DNA of 64,000 nucleotides from Candidatus Methylomirabilis tolerans (lineage in GTDB: Bacteria; Methylomirabilota; Methylomirabilia; Methylomirabilales; Methylomirabilaceae). Both the position numbers and the translations under genes were made by a program. Positions 5,966 through 30,567 of this stretch are shown here, piece by piece. Positions within the stretch are counted from its first letter, which is position 1. Each line of letters opens with the position of its first letter. Location: assembly GCA_019912425.1 (NCBI GenBank), contig JAIOIU010000102.1, positions 37,655 to 101,654 on the forward strand, written 5' to 3'. The notes under the pieces were generated by a model. It did no database searches. It saw only the letters and a program-made list of their open reading frames with translations, and had not been told where the DNA came from.

Positions 5966-6382
5966 TCAGATGAGTTTGACGATCGCCGAGGCGAAGCTTC
6001 TCAGGTCGCCTAAATGTTGGCGGATGATCTCGTGAACCTGCCCGTAGTCGATCTTCCAGTACACATGGACGAGGAGATTCCGGAAGCGTGCCATCTGTTG
6101 AAGGCGTTCCATGAGGGAAGCGGGGATGATTCCGGCGTCGCCAAGTAATCCGAAACACTCCGCGTATTCATCGGGGACGCGATTCAAGTGTTTTGCTGAA
6201 ACGTGATAGCAGAGGGCGAGGGCGGCCTCGATGGCCAGCAAGAGTCGGTAGCACGCGATGTCCAGCGCATCCTGATCGGCCAGAAATGCTTCGCGGGAAA
6301 GGGCAGCGAGCCGTTCGAGACGTTCGACCGATTCTTCGATCTCTGTACACCGTGAACGGATGAGATCGGAGTTCAGGGTCAT
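5966..6382 (-). CDS. hepT: HepT toxin (HEPN, DUF86 family) of a type VII TA pair
   Basis: ATG 6382 inside ORF 5966..6496 (MTLNSDLIRS...). R-x4-H-x-Y motif in RFRNLLVHVYW. ATGA overlap with the mntA stop (6379-6382). Confidence 0.85.
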   Translation of the reverse strand: MTLNSDLIRSRCTEIEESVERLERLAALSREAFLADQDALDIACYRLLLAIEAALALCYHVSAKHLNRVPDEYAECFGLLGDAGIIPASLMERLQQMARFRNLLVHVYWKIDYGQVHEIIRQHLGDLRSFASAIVKLI

Positions 6383-6789
6383 GTGCCGAAGGCCTCCTTC
6401 GTGGCATGACGAAGCACTGGGGCGATGTCGAAATAGCGCCGCATGGTGTCCTCCATGATGTCGGTGCGGAGGTCGTCGTTGCGACTGAGCAAACACTCAC
6501 CACGCAAGACGTGGAAGCGGAAGGAGACCGGCGCCCCGTTCAGGACGCGGGCATCGACTGGCATCTTGATCTTGCCGCTCAGGTGAGCCGACAGATTGGC
6601 AGCAATGTCGCCGTTAGTCTGGTCGGTGGATAGGTAGATCCCGATGTCTACATCGTGGAAGGCGTCAGAGTCGACAAATGAGCCGTAGACGTAGGCGAAG
6701 AGCACGTCGGGCTCACGTGAAAGCTCGGCAGCGATCTGATCCCGAATCGCGCTGCGTTCTTCCTGGCTCAGTCGGTAGAGCCGTTTCAT
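6379..6789 (-). CDS. mntA: MntA nucleotidyltransferase antitoxin
   Basis: ATG 6789 inside ORF 6379..7110 (MKRLYRLSQEERSAIRDQI...YVYGSFVDSDAFHDVDIGIYL). Sits 16 nt after the TraR/DksA stop with an aaggacgag RBS. Confidence 0.85.
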   Translation of the reverse strand: MKRLYRLSQEERSAIRDQIAAELSREPDVLFAYVYGSFVDSDAFHDVDIGIYLSTDQTNGDIAANLSAHLSGKIKMPVDARVLNGAPVSFRFHVLRGECLLSRNDDLRTDIMEDTMRRYFDIAPVLRHATKEAFGT

Positions 6790-6805
6790 CAGGCTCGTCC
6801 TTGCA

Positions 6806-7198
6806 TCATCGTTTTTCTGCTTCCCACTCTTCCTGGCAGGCTGCGCAACGCTGGGCGAAGGGCAGGGCCTGCAGGCGGGGAAGGGGGATCTCGTCGCCGC
6901 ATCCGGCGCAGCGGCCGTACGTCCCGGCCTTGTGGCGCTGGATGGCCACCTCGATCGCCTGAAGCTGTTGCTGCTGCTGCGCCACCATGGCCAGGCTGAT
7001 GTTGCCCTCCGGCGCCGCGCCCCAGCCGTGAGAACCCGGCGCATCCCGCATCTGAGACTCCTCCCGCCGCTCGTGAAGCGCCTGACGGATCCGCGCGGCA
7101 AGCCGCTCACGCCGTTCGGTCAGCAACCCCAGGAGTTGCGAGCTTCTGTCCTCTGAGTCTACCTGTGTCTGATTACGCTGCTCCACCGACGACCTCAT
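6806..7198 (-). CDS. TraR/DksA-family C4 zinc-finger protein
   Basis: 130-aa ORF. Coiled-coil N-terminal half. C-terminal CAGCGDEIPLPRLQALPFAQRCAAC four-Cys finger. Confidence 0.8.
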   Translation of the reverse strand: MRSSVEQRNQTQVDSEDRSSQLLGLLTERRERLAARIRQALHERREESQMRDAPGSHGWGAAPEGNISLAMVAQQQQQLQAIEVAIQRHKAGTYGRCAGCGDEIPLPRLQALPFAQRCAACQEEWEAEKR

Positions 7199-13287: not shown

Positions 13288-13527
13288 CCGGGTTTACCCG
13301 GCGTGGTGTATCTGACGCCTCTTGACCTTGATTTCGAGGCCGTCACGGCTTTGCACACTTGTCCGTTCTCTTCGAAACTACAGGTCTACCCAATTTGCCC
13401 GATTTGACCTCTCCGGTTGACAAGTCCAATATTTTAGAATAGGTTGCCTCCAAGCCAACTCCCCTTTTCCCCAGGATTCCGGCGGAAACGATAGAGCAGG
13501 TCACAGACGGACAAGGAAGCTGAGCCG

Positions 13528-13848
13528 ATGAAGACCGATATCAAGACGCTCATGGCAGAGCTAAAGGAAGGGCTGCAGGCGCTCTACGGCGATCGCCTGA
13601 AGGGCCTGTATCTGTTCGGCTCCTATGCTCGCCATGAGGCTGATGAAGAGTCTGATGTGGACGTACTGGTCGTCCTGGATCGCGTAGACAACTATTCCCA
13701 GGAAATCGACCGGACCGGCCAAATGGTTTCGGTCCTCTCCTTGGAGCACGGGGTCACTATCAGCCGGGTCTTCGCGACTGAGCAGCGGTGGTTAGAAGAT
13801 CAGACGATGTTCTTCTTGAATGTCCGGGAAGAGGCCGTCCCGGTATGA
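13528..13848 (+). CDS. nucleotidyltransferase-domain protein (MNT-type antitoxin)
   Basis: 106 aa. LFGSYARHEADEESDVDVLVV is the NTase G-S-x..D-x-D signature. Stop overlaps the next ATG (ATGA 13845-13848). Confidence 0.8.
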   Translation: MKTDIKTLMAELKEGLQALYGDRLKGLYLFGSYARHEADEESDVDVLVVLDRVDNYSQEIDRTGQMVSVLSLEHGVTISRVFATEQRWLEDQTMFFLNVREEAVPV

Positions 13849-14228
13849 AGGAAGAGGCCCGGACACTCCTTGAGAAGGGTTACCGCGCCTTGCACGCTGC
13901 GGAGACGCTTCTTCGCGATGACGATTACGAATTTGCGGCTGGTCGAGCCTATTATGCAATGTTGCACGCGGCTCAGGCTTTGCTGCGAGAGCATGACCTG
14001 AGGTATCGCAAACACACGAGCGTACACGCAGCATTCGGGCAGCACTTTGCCAAGACTGGCCGACTCGATCCAAAATTTCACGGTTGGCTGCTGGATGCCT
14101 TTGATGATCGGACCCGTGGTGACTACGATGCCGATGTTTCGTTCGATCGGGAGTCCATCGCAATGCGGATCGAGCAGGCCAGAGAGTTTCTGGCAATCGC
14201 CAGGCAGTGCCTGGAAAGAAGCGCATAA
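13845..14228 (+). CDS. HEPN-domain protein (toxin partner of the MNT)
   Basis: ATG 13845 inside ORF 13788..14228. MKEEARTLLEKGYRALHAAETLL...AYYAMLHAAQALL...RTRGDYD (R-x4-6-H-like HEPN core). Confidence 0.75.
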   Translation: MKEEARTLLEKGYRALHAAETLLRDDDYEFAAGRAYYAMLHAAQALLREHDLRYRKHTSVHAAFGQHFAKTGRLDPKFHGWLLDAFDDRTRGDYDADVSFDRESIAMRIEQAREFLAIARQCLERSA

Positions 14229-14260: not shown

Positions 14261-14968
14261 TTAATTGGGTCGGTCGGCGGTCGAGGCGGCTAGCACCGTT
14301 TTGATGTCGTTCACCATGACCTGTGGCACCAGCGACCCTGCGCTGTAGATGTTGCGCACATTCCCAGCCTGGTCCAGCAGGAAGACCTTGAGGACGTGAC
14401 GGTATCGGCCGGTGAAACGGCCGTTCTCATCGTAGACCTTCACCCGATCCTGCCCGTAACTTTCCAGCACTGTCCGGAGCGCCTGTTCTGAAGGCGCAGT
14501 CAGTAGATGCCACAGCGATGGCTCCGCCCCGAAGACGCGAGCGTACTTAGCAAGCTGTGCAGGCGTATCGCGTTCAGCGTCCAGGCTGATAGTAAGCAGT
14601 ACGGCCTGGTCCTGGAGACCCTCCCGAAGGAGTTGAGCCTGAAGCTCGCGAAGCGCCACGCTCGCCAGGGGGCAGCCAAGCCGGTCGGAGCAGGCGGTAT
14701 AGATGAAGCTCACGACCGCCACCTTGCCGCGCATGAGGGACGCGGTACTGACGCGGCGGCCGGCGGTATCGATCAGGACGACTGGCGAGACGCGCCTGAT
14801 GACCGGCAGGTCATAGGTTCCGGCGGCTGGTGGGATAAACTTGGGCGAGAACACGCCCTGAATATAGGTCTCCTCCCATTCAGGGATCTCGTGGGCATTG
14901 GCCATCGGGAAGGCCGGCGTGAAAAGGCTCAACGTCATCAATGCGCCGACCGGGACGATGGGGCGCAT
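14261..14968 (-). CDS. SCO1/SenC-family thioredoxin-fold copper chaperone
   Basis: ORF 14261..15004; start probably ATG 14968 (MRPIVPV..), abutting the upstream stop. VAVVSFIYTACSDRLGCP (CxxxC-type site), ISLDAERDTP, a conserved His in RYRHVLKVFLLD. Confidence 0.75.
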   Translation of the reverse strand: MRPIVPVGALMTLSLFTPAFPMANAHEIPEWEETYIQGVFSPKFIPPAAGTYDLPVIRRVSPVVLIDTAGRRVSTASLMRGKVAVVSFIYTACSDRLGCPLASVALRELQAQLLREGLQDQAVLLTISLDAERDTPAQLAKYARVFGAEPSLWHLLTAPSEQALRTVLESYGQDRVKVYDENGRFTGRYRHVLKVFLLDQAGNVRNIYSAGSLVPQVMVNDIKTVLAASTADRPN

Positions 14969-14969
14969 G

Positions 14970-16220
14970 CTACTCACCCTTGGTACGCAGCCCTTTGCTC
15001 CCAAAGTTCATGAGGTGAGCCCGGCCCACCGCGTTGAAGTCCGTGGTGAACTTGTGGGCGAGCTTCCCGTTCTCCCACGCATAGGCCTTTAGCCAGTAGT
15101 CCCCCGGCTTATCCCATTTCGAGAGGAGTGAGTTGGTGACGTAGAGGCGCGTGCCGTCCCACGATTCGGATACCATATTCGCCATCTCGCCCACCTTTAC
15201 CTGCTCGATCAGCTTGGCCTCAAAGGGATTGGAGATGTCGTAGACGCGAAGCATGCCATCCATAAATGAGGCCACGTAAAGCTTGCTGTCATCCGGGGCG
15301 ATGCTGATATCGACGGGGAGCGTGTTACCGAGATCGGCGATCACCTTGGTCGCCCAGGTGCCGTCCGCTTGCTGGTGGATCAGGACAAGTCGATGGCCGA
15401 GAGCCGTTGCTGTAAAGGCGTAGTGGTGGTTCGGCATGAGCGCCCAGCGCAGTTCCAGCGGCGCGCCGGGGACTTGCAGGACCTGCAGCGGCTTTCGGGC
15501 ATGGAAGTCCCACACGACGACCGTATCGCCGAACTCCTTCATCGCCTCCGCATCTTTAATCAACTCGCCGAGCGGCCGCATGTAGTTCTTCTTCCCGGTA
15601 AATGAGGAGGTGAGCATGCGGTTCAGATTAATGTTGACCCGCACGTCATAGCCATAGGGCGCCTCCTTCGGCATCCAGATCGTGCGAATGAAACGCCCTT
15701 CGTTGGAGTACTCCGCCAGCCCTGTCCTGCCTGAGCTGTCGTTCGCGTTCGAGAGTGCTGTGATCAACATCCGTCCCGGCAGGGCATAGAAGGTGTGGGG
15801 ACCGACCAGACCGCCCGTGTCTTTCACAAAACTTGTAATCGTTTTGACCAGCTTGGGCCTGGCTGGATCTGAGGCAACATCGAAGATGAAGATATAGCTG
15901 TCGTCCAGACCGCCAGCCCACAGATACCGCCGATCGTCGGTAAACCCAGCATGATGGGCCTCATGTTGCCCCGGCACCGGGGCCCGGTGGATGATCTGCC
16001 CGTAGGTCTTGGACTTAGGATGTACGTCGACGGTCACGAGGCTGTCGTTGCCGTCGCCCACCCCCTTAATTCCCAGCGTCCAGACATAGACATAGTCCTC
16101 CTGCCCGGTCACCTTTGGGAGGAACGGTGACTGGCAGGTCTCATCGGCAAAAGCCGTCCCGACCATCAAGGTGATCGCTATCAGCCAGAGCCATCCTACC
16201 GGGCGATGATATGGTCTCAT
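14970..16220 (-). CDS. selenium-binding-protein (SBP56) family protein, methanethiol-oxidase-like, secreted
   Basis: 416 aa. Signal peptide MRPYHRPVGWLWLIAITLMVGTAFA. Beta-propeller-type sequence with HHAGF, GPHTFYALPG, YGYDVR, typical of SBP56. RBS gcagggaggg. Confidence 0.8.
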   Translation of the reverse strand: MRPYHRPVGWLWLIAITLMVGTAFADETCQSPFLPKVTGQEDYVYVWTLGIKGVGDGNDSLVTVDVHPKSKTYGQIIHRAPVPGQHEAHHAGFTDDRRYLWAGGLDDSYIFIFDVASDPARPKLVKTITSFVKDTGGLVGPHTFYALPGRMLITALSNANDSSGRTGLAEYSNEGRFIRTIWMPKEAPYGYDVRVNINLNRMLTSSFTGKKNYMRPLGELIKDAEAMKEFGDTVVVWDFHARKPLQVLQVPGAPLELRWALMPNHHYAFTATALGHRLVLIHQQADGTWATKVIADLGNTLPVDISIAPDDSKLYVASFMDGMLRVYDISNPFEAKLIEQVKVGEMANMVSESWDGTRLYVTNSLLSKWDKPGDYWLKAYAWENGKLAHKFTTDFNAVGRAHLMNFGSKGLRTKGE

Positions 16221-16335
16221 GCTTGTTCCCTCCCTGCATTATCGTTTCTCACGTGCTCAGCAACACAAACGCGTTGCCGAGCCTGTCCGCGCCCATCTCC
16301 TGGCCTTCGGCTCTTTGATATCGTGATCCGCGAGG

Positions 16336-16757
16336 TTATTTCGGTTTCTCCCTTGCTTCGCCGTCCAGCCCTTCCAGTGTCAAGGCGACGAAGGTATTGC
16401 CCAGCGCTGTTGTGACCCGCGTCAGCTCCAGCAGGGCCGCGACGCCGCTGGCATTGTCGTTGGCGCCTGGGGTCGGAAGACGTTGCGCTCACCGAACTCG
16501 CCGGCGAGGTGCTCCACGTGCGTCCGCAGACGTGAAACTGAGATCTGCTGGACGATGTTCACGGACCCCAAGCCTGGTTTCGGCGTGCGCGCCATCCTCT
16601 CATCCGGTGATGCCGGATCACGCTGGGTTCGACGCTGAGACATGCGGGCCCCTTGTTGAGACATTGCGGAATCGGATATCACAATGGCTCCTAAATGGCA
16701 TGCTACCAGAAAGTGCGTCGTTAGACCAGAAACCCGATCCGGATTCAATGGCCACAT
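16336..16757 (-). pseudogene. decayed M28-family aminopeptidase remnant (copy 1)
   Basis: Minus-strand frame 1: ..VSRLRTHVEHLAGEFGERNVFRPQA. After a frameshift: GANDNASGVAALLELTRVTTALGNTFVALTLEGLDGEAREKPK-stop. Only the N-terminus, the DNASG motif and the C-terminal tail survive. Confidence 0.6.
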
Positions 16758-16989
16758 ATCATCGCTTCGTGCGGCTCTTGGTCTCAGAAGAGGGTCAGTT
16801 AAACCTTAAGCTAGAGCCGATCCTCACCGGGACCCACGTCGGCGCGTCACAAAAACACTTGACACATCCGTCCGATCAGAAGGAATATCGGCCTGCCCGT
16901 GATGATCCTTCCCCTTGTACACCTATTGTACACGGAACACGAGCGGGTGCGCGTCTTCCATCCAAAATCATCAACAAGGGGGCAAAGAG

Positions 16990-17337
16990 ATGAGGCCGGT
17001 TGTGGCGGTGGGTCTGGCAGTGCTCGTCATGGTGTCCAGCACGCCGAACTGGGCGGAGGCCCAAGCACAAGAAAGCACGCTGTCGCAAGTCGGGACAGGA
17101 GTCGGAAGCGCGATAGGGACCTTCGTCTATTTCCCGTTCAAGGCAGCTTTCTGCATTCTAGGGGGAGTGGCAAGCGGCGTTACCGCAGTCTTTGCTGGAC
17201 CTGAGAACGCCGGCAAGGTCGCCAGAACCGCCTGCGGAGGGAGCTGGGTCATTACGCCAGACGTTGTCAAGGGGAAGGAGACGGTGAAGTTTACGGGAGA
17301 TCCTGCGCCCTCCCAGCAGCGTCCATCCGCCAAGTAA
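16990..17337 (+). CDS. small secreted/membrane protein, conserved unknown (paralog of 30229..30567)
   Basis: ATG 16990 after aaggggg. MRPVVAVGLAVLVMVSSTPNWAEA signal peptide, then GTGVGSAIGTFVYFPFKAAFCILGG...C.GSWVITP. Confidence 0.65.
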   Translation: MRPVVAVGLAVLVMVSSTPNWAEAQAQESTLSQVGTGVGSAIGTFVYFPFKAAFCILGGVASGVTAVFAGPENAGKVARTACGGSWVITPDVVKGKETVKFTGDPAPSQQRPSAK

Positions 17338-17393
17338 GGGAGAGTGGTCACCGGGGATCTGCCCTGGTGTGGACAGACCCCCGTCCCATGACG

Positions 17394-18008
17394 TTATTGC
17401 ATCGCCTCCGCGACCCGTCCGACCAGTTGGGCGGAAGGTGTGAGGGTTTTGTCTCCCGCCTCCTTCCACTGAGCGGGACAGACCTCATGAGGGTGATCGG
17501 CGAGATGGCGATTTGCCTTCACCTTCCGAAGGAGCTCGTCGATATTCCTGCCTACGTTATAGAAGTGGATCTCGGCGCTCACTAATTTCCCTTCCGGACT
17601 GATGATGAAGGTTCCCCTGAGCGGAAGGCCGGTCTGCTCATCATAGACCCCAAACAGCCGGGCGACAGTCCCCGTGGGATCCGCCCCCATCGGATATCTG
17701 GCGCCTTGCAGGAGCTTTTCCTCTCGCTGCCAGGCCAAGTGAACGAACTTGGTGGCGGTACTCACCGTAATGACCTCGGTCTGAAGCGCCCGCAACTGTT
17801 CGTACCGCTCTGCCAGAGCGGCATGTTCCGTTGCTCAGACGAAGGTAAAATCGGCCGGGTAGAAGAAGAGCACCGTCCACTTCTCCTTCTGCTTGAGCGT
17901 TTCAAGGCTGACCGTCCCGAACCCCCCGTTGGCCGGCTCAAATGTCTCCAACTGAAACTGGGGCACCTCGTCCCCCACCCCCACACTACAGCGCTGATTG
18001 TCTGTCAT
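17394..18008 (-). CDS. 2-Cys peroxiredoxin (AhpC/Prx1 type) with in-frame TGA at the peroxidatic Cys position, a selenocysteine candidate
   Basis: ORFs 17835..18059 and 17394..17795 are in the same frame. The join reads MTDNQ...WTVLFFYPADFTFV-TGA(17835-17837)-ATEHAALAERYEQLRALQTEVITVS...HEVCPAQW. Start ATG 18008 follows AGGAGG. A hairpin lies 11 nt after the TGA. Confidence 0.7.
17804..17823 (-). promoter_or_regulatory. candidate bacterial SECIS hairpin
   Basis: mRNA UG-CCGCUC-UGGCA-GAGCGG-UA: 6 GC-rich pairs plus a G-U and a U-A, with a 5-nt loop containing GG. The stem starts 11 nt after the UGA codon. Confidence 0.5.
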
Positions 18009-18422
18009 CTGCGTGCCTCCTGTTGTCATGCTGACTCCAAAGGATGGACCATGCCTCATTCATCTCACTGGGAGGCCGATCGCTCGTCTCCCAGACGCTA
18101 CATCATAGCTGCGTCCTGCAATACTGACAATAGGTGTGCCCGCTATTGGTCGGTAGAGCCACGTTCAATACGCTGGATGCATGAGTGTCTCACACGCGAC
18201 TCAAAGCGTTGAGAACGAGGTGAAGGGGGCATCAGATATTGGCTCAGGGGAGTCGGGCGTCTCGCTAACCCGATGAACGATTGTCCGCATACTGCCCCCG
18301 CATGTAAGAGACCCGACGTGTTCTCTCCCAGTTCCTGAAAACAAGGGAACAATTTACACGAGTCGTACGTAGCCAAATGCGAAGCACTGCTGTAACTACC
18401 TAAGAAATCACAGGGGGCTGGT

Positions 18423-18437
18423 TGGCACGGGGATTGC
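18423..18437 (+). promoter_or_regulatory. sigma54-type -24/-12 promoter candidate
   Basis: TGGCAC-gggga-TTGC matches the TGGCAC-N5-TTGC consensus exactly. It lies about 255 nt upstream of ATG 18692. Confidence 0.45.
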
Positions 18438-18691
18438 CTTGAGCTGAGGTGAACCCCATTGATGACCGAATGAGGAGGGCAGCAACACGACCGGCTGTTC
18501 ATTGAGGCGCGGAAAAAGGAGCGAGTTAGAATGGGGGATGTGGGTGCGGGTGGCGATGATTCTTGGGCTAAGGCTTGCCAAGGCGATACCAGTTGCCCCC
18601 GGTCAGGAAATAAGGGGATAAGCGGTCGCTGTGCGATCAACACCGCCAACCCCTTTGACCCGAAACGTCGAGGAGGGAGAAGGAGACAGCA

Positions 18692-19180
18692 ATGTCAGAC
18701 CAGAGGTGGAATCCGTGGAAGCTCACTACAATCGGGATAGCGGTGGTCTTTGCCACGGCACTAATCACCGGACTGGTGGTAGCAAACTGGGTTGGCAATC
18801 AGCAGACAAAGCCGGTTGCTGAGGCCCCTCGAGGGCGTGTCTCGCGCGCCGTTTCGCCGCGGATGATGCCGTCCCCCGCAGCGAGACCGTCGGGTTCGGC
18901 CGTCACGGCTTGTAATCAGTATGCAAGCTCCATGGCCGGCGACAGGACTACCGAAGTCCTGAAGGACGCCTTGGTCGGAGGGGCGCTCGGCGCAGGCGTG
19001 GGCGCGGCTGGCGGTGCGATCGCCGGAGGCGGCAAAGGCGCCGGCAAGGGAGCCGGCATCGGAGGCCTGGTGGGAGCGACTGCAGGCACTCTGTACGGCC
19101 TCAGCGAGGCTAGGCAGGCGGATGCCCGCTACGTTGCTGCCTACCGAGGCTGCATGAGGAGCCGGGGCTACAGCGGCTAG
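18692..19180 (+). CDS. glycine-zipper membrane protein
   Basis: 162 aa. N-terminal TM WKLTTIGIAVVFATALITGLVV. GGALGAGVGAAGGAIAGGGKGAGKGAGIGGLVGATAG zipper. C-terminal YVAAYRGCMRSRGY, common in this family. Confidence 0.75.
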   Translation: MSDQRWNPWKLTTIGIAVVFATALITGLVVANWVGNQQTKPVAEAPRGRVSRAVSPRMMPSPAARPSGSAVTACNQYASSMAGDRTTEVLKDALVGGALGAGVGAAGGAIAGGGKGAGKGAGIGGLVGATAGTLYGLSEARQADARYVAAYRGCMRSRGYSG

Positions 19181-19537
19181 TTCGTTGCTCGCTTCCAGCT
19201 CAAGGCAGCCAAGGCAGTGAAGAACGACAAACTGCCAAGAGCGGGCTCCCCTAATAGCGGGCCCGTGATCATATCTTGACCCCCATCTGCCGCAACTGCG
19301 GCACCCCCATTTCCTTCCTGTTCGGCCTCACTGCTAGATGTAGTTGAACGCCCATCATCTTTACGATTCCTTAACAGCAACCCCTCGAATTTTAACGGCC
19401 TTTTGATTTGACCCGACAAGACCTCGATAGTACGTTGACTATGAAGGGTCGTGGTGCGCAACCTGTCGCCTCAGCAGGCGAGCTCACGTCAGGCCCACCG
19501 ACTCTCGAGGACGTTGGCCATGAACTGAGGGATAGCT

Positions 19538-29659: not shown

Positions 29660-30085
29660 CCGCAGAAGGCGAGTCCCGTCCGCTCTCCAGCCCTTCTATT
29701 GCCAACGCCGCGAAGGTCTCGGCGAGCCCCGCCGTCACCCGGGTGAACTCCGGATATGCCAGCTTCTCGGAAGTATCTTTGCGGGTATGGTAATAGGGGT
29801 AGCGGTAGAATGCGGTGCCGGTGACCATGATGGCGCAGTAGCCATGCCGCCAAAACGACCGGTGATCGCTCCAGGCGACCCCGGGGACAAAACGGGAAGT
29901 CGCCACGTGTTCGAGTGGAAAGTCGGAGTGTTGGCGAAAGATCCGCACCGCGCAGCGCCTCAGGCCGAAAGACGTTGCGCTCACCGATCTCGCCGGCGAG
30001 GCGCTCGATGAGCCCGCAGGCGCGAGACTGAGACCTGCTGAGCGATGCGTACGGTCCCTAAGGCTGGCTTTGATATGTGGGACAT
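29574..30085 (-). pseudogene. decayed M28-family aminopeptidase remnant (copy 2), multiply frameshifted and internally deleted
   Basis: Three frames are needed. MSHISKPALGTVRIAQQVSVSRLRAH / LIERLAGEIGERNVFRPEALR / ..FPLEHVATSRFVPGVAWSDHRSFWRHGYCAIMVTGTAFYRYPYYHTRKDT... (SDH..F and YHT..D are M28 C-terminal motifs). The catalytic core is missing. The 3' end overlaps kdpE convergently. Confidence 0.65.
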
Positions 30086-30228
30086 GGTATCATCACATCG
30101 ACGTCAGATCGCGCGAGTCTCGATTCTGATCGAGATGGGGTTGTCGTGACCGTTTTCCACTCCTGAGTTATCGTACACCAGAGAAGATGCTGCTGTTAGA
30201 GAAAATCATCAGCAGGAGGATGGACGAG

Positions 30229-30567
30229 ATGAGACAGATCGTGGCATTGGGCATCGCAATGCTTGTGATCGGGCATAGTACTCAAAGCTGGGCAGGATCA
30301 GAAGCGAGTAGGCAGCACAGCACGCTCAGGCAGGCCGGCACAGGGATCGGGAGTGCCGTGGGGACAATCGTGTATTTCCCGTTCAAGGCGGCCTTCTGTA
30401 TTGTGGGCGGGCTGGTCGGCGGCGTAACCCTGATGGTTGCGGGCTCCGAGCAAGCGGGGCGAGTCGTAGACACCTCCTGCCGAGGGACTTGGACGATCAC
30501 GCCGGCTATCGTAGCAGGCGAAGAGCCGGTCTACTTTGTGGGCAATCCCTCCGGGCAACAACAGTGA
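30229..30567 (+). CDS. small secreted/membrane protein, paralog of 16990..17337
   Basis: ATG 30229, 9 nt after AGGAGG. MRQIVALGIAMLVIGHSTQSWA signal peptide. GTGIGSAVGTIVYFPFKAAFCIVGG...C.GTWTITP. Confidence 0.65.
   Translation: MRQIVALGIAMLVIGHSTQSWAGSEASRQHSTLRQAGTGIGSAVGTIVYFPFKAAFCIVGGLVGGVTLMVAGSEQAGRVVDTSCRGTWTITPAIVAGEEPVYFVGNPSGQQQ

Follow-up and report, generated by a model that had tools for sequence, protein, structure and literature searches.

A probable selenocysteine-dependent 2-Cys peroxiredoxin divided between two open reading frames in Candidatus Methylomirabilis tolerans

We analyzed a 64,000-nucleotide stretch of Candidatus Methylomirabilis tolerans (assembly GCA_019912425.1, contig JAIOIU010000102.1, positions 37,655 to 101,654; hereafter the window), focusing on a minus-strand peroxiredoxin gene whose in-frame TGA may encode selenocysteine (Sec). 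The open reading frame (ORF) list breaks this gene in two, at 17835..18059 (74 aa) and 17394..17795 (133 aa), with both pieces lying in a single frame: translation of 18059..17394 yields ...KWTVLFFYPADFTFV*ATEHAALAERYEQLRALQTEVITVST... with one internal stop, and the read-through translation across both ORFs, also given as ...KWTVLFFYPADFTFV*ATEHAALAERYEQLR..., again contains one. The original prediction had described two ORFs in one frame with a TGA between them, 146 open codons after it and an AGGAGG at the start, and each of these elements was confirmed. Translation reproduced the coordinates, all 146 downstream codons are open up to the TAA at 17396..17394, and the AGGAGG Shine-Dalgarno sequence lies at 18016..18021 on the minus strand, 7 nt upstream of the ATG at 18008..18006. 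We take this ATG as the true start because it is preceded by AGGAGG and because the N-terminus that it opens aligns with those of full-length homologues, among which a longer upstream extension is unconserved. Read through its TGA, the predicted AhpC-type 2-Cys peroxiredoxin gene thus comprises 204 codons (17394..18008, minus strand), an annotation based on translation, Pfam, solved AhpC structures and homologue N-termini, and the predicted peptide spanning codon 58 is WTVLFFYPADFTFV-X-ATEHAALAER.

All public gene calls found for the gene and its alleles are split, into a 57-residue fragment and a second fragment of 123 or 133 residues. The candidate selenoprotein is therefore unseen in protein databases, and the antioxidant repertoire of the organism is under-counted.

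With Cys substituted at the TGA, the product matched the Pfam AhpC-TSA family PF00578 at 121.3 bits (cut-off 26) and the C-terminal peroxiredoxin domain PF10417 at 22.5 bits (cut-off 21.1). It also matched 135 solved peroxiredoxin chains, the best AhpC with E = 3e-45 over residues 27-199, and 45% identity to solved AhpC fixes the fold. In the catalytic-site alignment, YPADFTFVC-PTE of 1yf1 stands over YPADFTFV-U-ATE of the window, so that the TGA (codon 58, 17835..17837, minus strand) falls exactly on the peroxidatic Cys of a 2-Cys peroxiredoxin, as had been proposed; Cys-form homologues support the same assignment of this codon as the putative Sec of a PxxxTxxU motif. Among homologues, the columns of that motif (P51-A-D-F-T55-F-V-U58) and of R131 are invariant. 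Thr55 is encoded by ACC at 17844..17846 and Arg131, which aligns with the conserved AhpC Arg, by AGG at 17616..17618, both on the minus strand. The resolving-Cys motif HEVCPAQW proved as intact as originally described: its Cys177 (TGT, 17478..17480, minus strand) occupies another invariant column and aligns with EVCPAKW of AhpC. Domain content, catalytic motif, Arg and resolving Cys thus identify the predicted product as a peroxiredoxin of the AhpC/Prx1 (typical 2-Cys) class.

Its place within that class appears to be a distinct one. The product scored 194.5 bits against the AhpC equivalog TIGR03137 (cut-off 272), which leaves it outside AhpC proper, and 173.1 bits against the PrxU equivalog NF040737 (cut-off 270), so that it is not a PrxU orthologue. 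Pfam scans found no AhpF-like gene in the window, and none adjoins the homologues. By its sequence features, the predicted protein belongs to a sister subfamily marked by FTFV-U/C-ATE, with Ala replacing the usual Pro, and by an N-terminal Cys cluster. That cluster (MSExCCG... or CECLGC) sits directly ahead of VGxxVPxF in the subfamily, and of the forms at loci L121-L200, 47 of 50 with Sec and 14 of 23 with Cys at the catalytic position have at least one Cys at the cluster site. The window protein has a single N-terminal Cys, Cys7 (17988-17990); classical AhpC is without such a cluster.

How the catalytic codon varies among relatives was followed in DNA. A protein-guided metagenome scan returned the 80 nearest relatives (61-72% identity), and the catalytic codon was readable in 79 of them, the motif being missed in the remaining one: TGA occurred in 55, TGC in 18 and TGT in 6. 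Because predicted-protein databases cannot reveal read-through genes, species-genome DNA (596 Gb) was also scanned for FYPxDFTFV followed by TGA, which returned at least 120 loci in at least 120 species genomes spanning many phyla, against a chance expectation of about 0.14 by our own arithmetic. In nearly all of the matches listed (at least 120 loci), the TGA is followed by a further 139-150 open peroxiredoxin codons. The closest TGA forms among the matches listed, at 57-65% identity, come from metagenome-assembled genomes (MAGs) labelled Nitrospirota, Nitrospiraceae, Thermodesulfovibrionia, Planctomycetota and Rokuibacteriota. A protein-database search, for its part, recovered full-length Cys forms only, of about 200 residues and at most 71% identical, with the subfamily signature FTFVCATEF. 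A neighbour-joining tree intermixed Sec and Cys forms and placed the window protein on a long basal branch of the subfamily.

The alternation of Cys and Sec codons at this position, which the original prediction had put forward as a check, is thus borne out by 55 TGA forms interleaved in the tree with 24 TGC or TGT forms; its remark that Sec-containing peroxiredoxins are rare was overstated, since TGA forms prevail in the subfamily. As judged from these sequences, TGA is the majority state and switching between the predicted Sec and Cys forms is frequent. This distribution bears directly on the plainest alternative, a pseudogene in which a TGC- or TGT-to-TGA nonsense mutation killed a Cys-type peroxiredoxin whose remainder has so far escaped decay. 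Such a history would agree with a TGA one base from either Cys codon, with the splitting of the gene by gene callers and with the presence of Cys forms in the same subfamily, but it does not account for a TGA that most members of the subfamily carry.

In locus L139, a TGA form, the hairpin described below is interrupted by an in-frame TAG (GAG TAG), which marks the locus as a pseudogene or a sequencing error. Among the matches listed (L001-L120), further peroxiredoxin subfamilies with TGA forms occur in many phyla, with the signatures U-PTEL, U-ATEV and U-ATEI; their hairpin differs (for example GGCAGCGGUCGCUGCC) and begins about 15 nt past the UGA.

Downstream of the UGA, the window mRNA can form a hairpin with a 9-bp stem (17823..17815 with 17811..17803) and a GGC loop (17814..17812), occupying 17803..17823 on the minus strand and identified by folding and comparison as a candidate selenocysteine insertion sequence (SECIS). 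Its sequence is UGCCGCUCU-GGC-AGAGCGGUA (17823..17803), and it is separated from the UGA by an 11-nt spacer (17824..17834, minus strand) over the codons Ala-Thr-Glu-His, a spacing common to the TGA forms of the subfamily. Folding of a 38-nt stretch gave -13.4 kcal/mol, with z = -2.0 against shuffles. The minimum-energy fold of the window also pairs the UGA itself, in an extended lower helix; we dropped this helix, which is unconserved in alleles L207 and L208.

What raises the hairpin above chance is how Sec forms differ from Cys forms, together with its covariation, not its folding energy. All TGA forms of the subfamily share the 11-nt spacer, the 9-bp stem and the GGC loop over the codons Ala-Ala-Leu-Ala-Glu-Gln/Arg. 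In 54 of 56 distinct TGA forms, 8-9 of the 9 pairs are formed, whereas 17 of 22 distinct Cys forms make only 3-6. At the wobble position of the second Ala codon, 55 of 56 Sec forms have U, and Cys forms have U, A, G or C; at that of the third, every Sec form has A or G, either of which pairs with U, and 14 of 22 Cys forms have U or C. GCU and GCA, the Ala codons that the stem requires, are the two rarest Ala codons in the organism. Across the 56 distinct TGA forms, pairing holds in 95.6% of cells, versus 15-63% when the partner is slid, and six cells are altered on both sides of the stem, a number equalled by 0 of 500 shuffles. Pair 18-32 exemplifies this behavior, occurring as U-A (43), U-G (6), C-G (5) and A-U (1). 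The window stem itself carries the compensated C-G state, in which GCU has become GCC (synonymous) together with CAG (Gln) becoming CGG (Arg).

The hairpin is therefore conserved beyond what the protein sequence needs, covaries and is specific to Sec forms. The GC-rich hairpin that had been noted at a SECIS-compatible distance is accordingly retained in all TGA forms, with covariation, and is missing in most Cys forms. Preservation of a Sec-form-specific hairpin through a compensatory change again speaks against a pseudogene, and the subfamily pattern suggests that a SECIS limits synonymous sites for only as long as Sec is used. A related case is seen at loci L122 and L123, which have TGC at the catalytic codon (near 6170) together with a perfect SECIS hairpin, while their sister L124 has TGA; the pair looks like a very recent switch from Sec to Cys, as far as the sequences indicate.

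Within the lineage of the source organism, integrity of the gene was examined in three distinct alleles carried by four contigs, one from each of four other samples (L207, L208, and L209 and L210, which are identical). All three alleles (four loci) still read TGA at codon 58 and keep the frame of 204 codons whole; they diverge from the window by dS (synonymous divergence) of up to 0.30-0.45. In the hairpin, the stem from the second pair onward and the loop are invariant, while nearby wobble sites vary. For the window and the three alleles, the ratio of nonsynonymous to synonymous divergence (dN/dS) is 0.11-0.19 over codons 59-204 and 0.07-0.26 over codons 1-57, and of the codons that differ, 15 of 44 and 11 of 38 are changed nonsynonymously, compared with about 72% expected without selection (p ~1e-7).

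The part of the gene beyond the UGA thus appears to be translated in frame and under selection, which excludes a decaying pseudogene: relatives truncated or degraded downstream of this codon would have spoken for decay, and instead three diverged alleles proved intact past the stop. A nonsense-killed Cys-type gene is accordingly a highly improbable account of the locus.

The same material addresses a sequencing or assembly error, or a UGA decoded as Cys or Trp instead of Sec. One miscalled base is conceivable in any MAG, and nothing more specific favors this account. Exact 57- and 123-residue fragments were found on 10-11 contigs, clustering with diverged variants split at the same point, and the TGA recurs both in these exact fragments and in the diverged alleles of other samples. 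The Logan assembly of SRR15661995 is likewise 100% identical to the window across 6.6 kb, TGA included, and this independent agreement argues against an assembly artefact; the worry that reads might show a Cys codon here is thus met by a TGA that recurs in independent assemblies. A changed code fares no better, because TGA terminates 12 of the 46 window genes, making the code standard and the recoding local. Furthermore, a conserved downstream hairpin typifies decoding by SelB rather than near-cognate read-through. We regard error or decoding as another amino acid as having almost no likelihood.

A mechanical search for other TGA-split genes in the window, as possible proof of Sec use, gave 208 candidates and was set aside; the intergenic ones are the ordinary stops of a small membrane-protein gene, a cupin gene and a pair of MNT/HEPN genes.

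Taken together, codon position, the Sec-specific hairpin and purifying selection after the UGA support the selenocysteine reading first proposed. Gene 18008..17394 very probably encodes one 204-residue typical 2-Cys peroxiredoxin in which UGA codon 58 specifies Sec as the peroxidatic residue.

The setting of the source organism agrees with this assignment in part. At 90% identity or higher, the window proteins KdpB, RhlE and NeuB group with those from Candidatus Methylomirabilis oxyfera, Methylomirabilis sp. and NC10 bacteria. The Sec trait is defined by SelD, SelA and SelB (Peng et al. 2016), and M. oxyfera is listed as Sec-utilizing, with 6 known selenoproteins (PMC5029168 Table S2). For the wider phylum, a Methylomirabilota MAG has been credited with 63 predicted selenoprotein genes (2026 review, PMC13188914), and Sec-type hydrogenases have been reported in Methylomirabilota. 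The Sec machinery is thus documented for the genus and the phylum, from which we infer it for the source genome.

Several observations weigh on the other side. Within the 64-kb window, no tRNA-Sec was detected (ARAGORN reported no tRNA, and Rfam nothing at the gathering threshold), and Pfam scans of its 46 ORFs found no selA, selB or selD. Searches for Rfam SECIS models returned nil at the gathering threshold across the window and at E <= 10 across 17600..18000, with model coverage unchecked; the permissive-E Rfam matches on 17600..18000 were snoRNA-like chance hits only. The folding z-score by itself is modest, at -2.0 to -2.7. Finally, M. oxyfera MAGs lack the 3.1-kb segment on which the gene sits, so that a fit of the SECIS to the host SelB is an assumption.

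That last point opens a further alternative, in which a horizontally acquired selenoprotein gene, its SECIS a misfit to the host SelB, is decoded little or not at all and rides as a silent passenger on a strain-specific island. The segment in question (16230..19357) was delimited by blastn synteny between the genes for SBP56 and an amino-acid permease. It is absent from this junction in the M. oxyfera MAGs L202 (2655-2777) and L203 and in two other relatives, L205 and L206, which favors this alternative. The closest homologues outside the lineage are moreover only 61-72% identical, and those with organism names are mostly labelled Nitrospirota. The segment carries a small membrane-protein gene, the peroxiredoxin gene and a Gly-zipper protein gene. 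Its GC content of 0.593 equals that of the window, and the segment is therefore lineage-specific and not obviously a recent import; the equal GC of island and genome thus argues against recent acquisition.

Purifying selection within the lineage over dS of 0.3-0.45, with a hairpin near-invariant among alleles, is also at odds with a gene that is not decoded, and the recurrence of one hairpin shape across many phyla argues for broad SelB compatibility. A silent passenger consequently strikes us as very unlikely.

Returning to the selenoprotein reading, a course of decoding and catalysis can be proposed. The 9-bp GGC-loop hairpin 11 nt past the UGA would act as a bacterial SECIS, binding SelB with Sec-tRNA(Sec) so that the ribosome adds Sec at the UGA and does not terminate. 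Bacterial Sec decoding by SelB and Sec-tRNA(Sec) is summarised in PMC9312934 and PMC5029168. From the chemistry of the family, the Sec58 selenolate, placed by Thr55 and Arg131, would attack the peroxide and become a selenenic acid; Cys177 of the partner subunit would resolve it to a selenenylsulfide, and a thioredoxin-type reductant could then recycle the enzyme. For the source organism, we infer Sec insertion, the reductant and the substrate alike.

Selenocysteine peroxiredoxins have been known since PrxU of Eubacterium acidaminophilum (Sohling et al. 2001). Prx (TxxU) is a standard bacterial selenoprotein family, with 12 members in a 2006 survey and, by 2016, 91 members in 78 organisms, making it the seventh most common family (Peng et al. 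2016). The window gene resembles this family in its predicted use of Sec for the peroxidatic Cys of an AhpC/TSA domain and in a putative SECIS hairpin right after the UGA. Unlike PrxU, its product stays below the NF040737 cut-off, has Ala rather than Pro after Sec/Cys and belongs to a subfamily with an N-terminal Cys cluster.

With the AhpC proteins of Salmonella and E. coli (PDB 1yf1, 4o5r) it shares YPADFTFV-[C/U], the active-site Arg and a resolving Cys in EVCPA[KQ]W; it differs in its predicted Sec at the peroxidatic site, in ATE for PTE, in a Cys-bearing N-terminal extension and in a window without AhpF. The hairpin is like the E. coli fdhF SECIS in lying within the coding sequence directly 3' of the UGA, and unlike it in sequence, in its perfect 9-bp stem, in its 3-nt loop and in having no bulged U. 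In the fdhF element, as Liu et al. are said to have found in 1998, the essential upper stem-loop reportedly begins 11 nt past the UGA and carries a G in its apical loop; the window hairpin also has an 11-nt spacer, and its loop is GGC. The window gene adds to an already known selenoprotein type and leaves the current understanding of selenoproteins unchanged. It would add a Sec-dependent peroxidase to a nitrite-dependent methane oxidiser, from a phylum that is emerging as unusually selenoprotein-rich.

The neighbors of homologues in other phyla point to a possible physiological context. A Fur-family regulator lies upstream on the same strand at 18 loci and an Rrf2 regulator downstream at 21, with desulfoferrodoxin at 13 loci and a 4Fe-4S membrane protein at 16; subunits of cbb3 oxidase stand beside homologues at 9 loci, an assignment made by eye only. 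Such a neighborhood fits a thioredoxin-dependent peroxidase of an oxygen-defence regulon, as far as gene order can suggest. Separately, a 144-residue Cys-rich protein with no Pfam match adjoins Sec forms only (10 loci).

A more ambitious proposal, doubtful in our estimation and offered as speculation, is that FTFV-[U/C]-ATE forms a distinct Sec-dominant clade whose N-terminal Cys cluster (CC/CxCxxC) is a third redox or metal centre, that the clade belongs to an oxygen-defence module, and that its member here was gained on an island for detoxifying peroxide or peroxynitrite. If so, the cluster would work with the Sec-Cys pair; in anaerobes, the clade would be part of a module regulated by Fur-family and Rrf2 proteins and containing superoxide reductase and cbb3 oxidase; and in the Methylomirabilis lineage, the gene, gained on the 3-kb island, would target peroxides or peroxynitrite formed from the oxygen that the organism itself derives from NO.

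The surroundings of the gene hold several further features. Upstream, a sigma-70-like promoter candidate (TTGTCA-17-TATGAT, 18102..18130, minus strand), proposed on its match to the consensus, agrees at 10 of 12 positions, where chance alone would give 0.5 such sites across the region. Apart from this promoter match, the approximately 680 nt that separate the start of the peroxiredoxin gene from the divergently oriented Gly-zipper gene (18009-18691) hold no supported gene; public gene calls put a 166-residue ORF there that matches no family. The left part of the 3.1-kb segment (16364-17303) is a 66-80% identical duplicate of window positions 29686..30503, a region with a small membrane-protein gene and what is left of an M28 peptidase. 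Two short remnants at 29686-30070 are what the window retains of the M28 peptidase gene of M. oxyfera (L202 16875-17819), and the large PAS sensor gene that adjoins the peptidase gene in M. oxyfera is missing from the window.

The SBP56 gene (selenium-binding protein / methanethiol-oxidase family) overlaps a SCO1/SenC copper-chaperone gene (14261-16220, minus strand); this pair lies 1.2 kb from the candidate selenoprotein gene and is conserved in M. oxyfera. Three MNT/HepT-type nucleotidyltransferase/HEPN toxin-antitoxin-like pairs occur within 14 kb, at 1920-2573, 5966-7110 and 13495-14228, and in the third of these the HEPN start and a TGA stop overlap.

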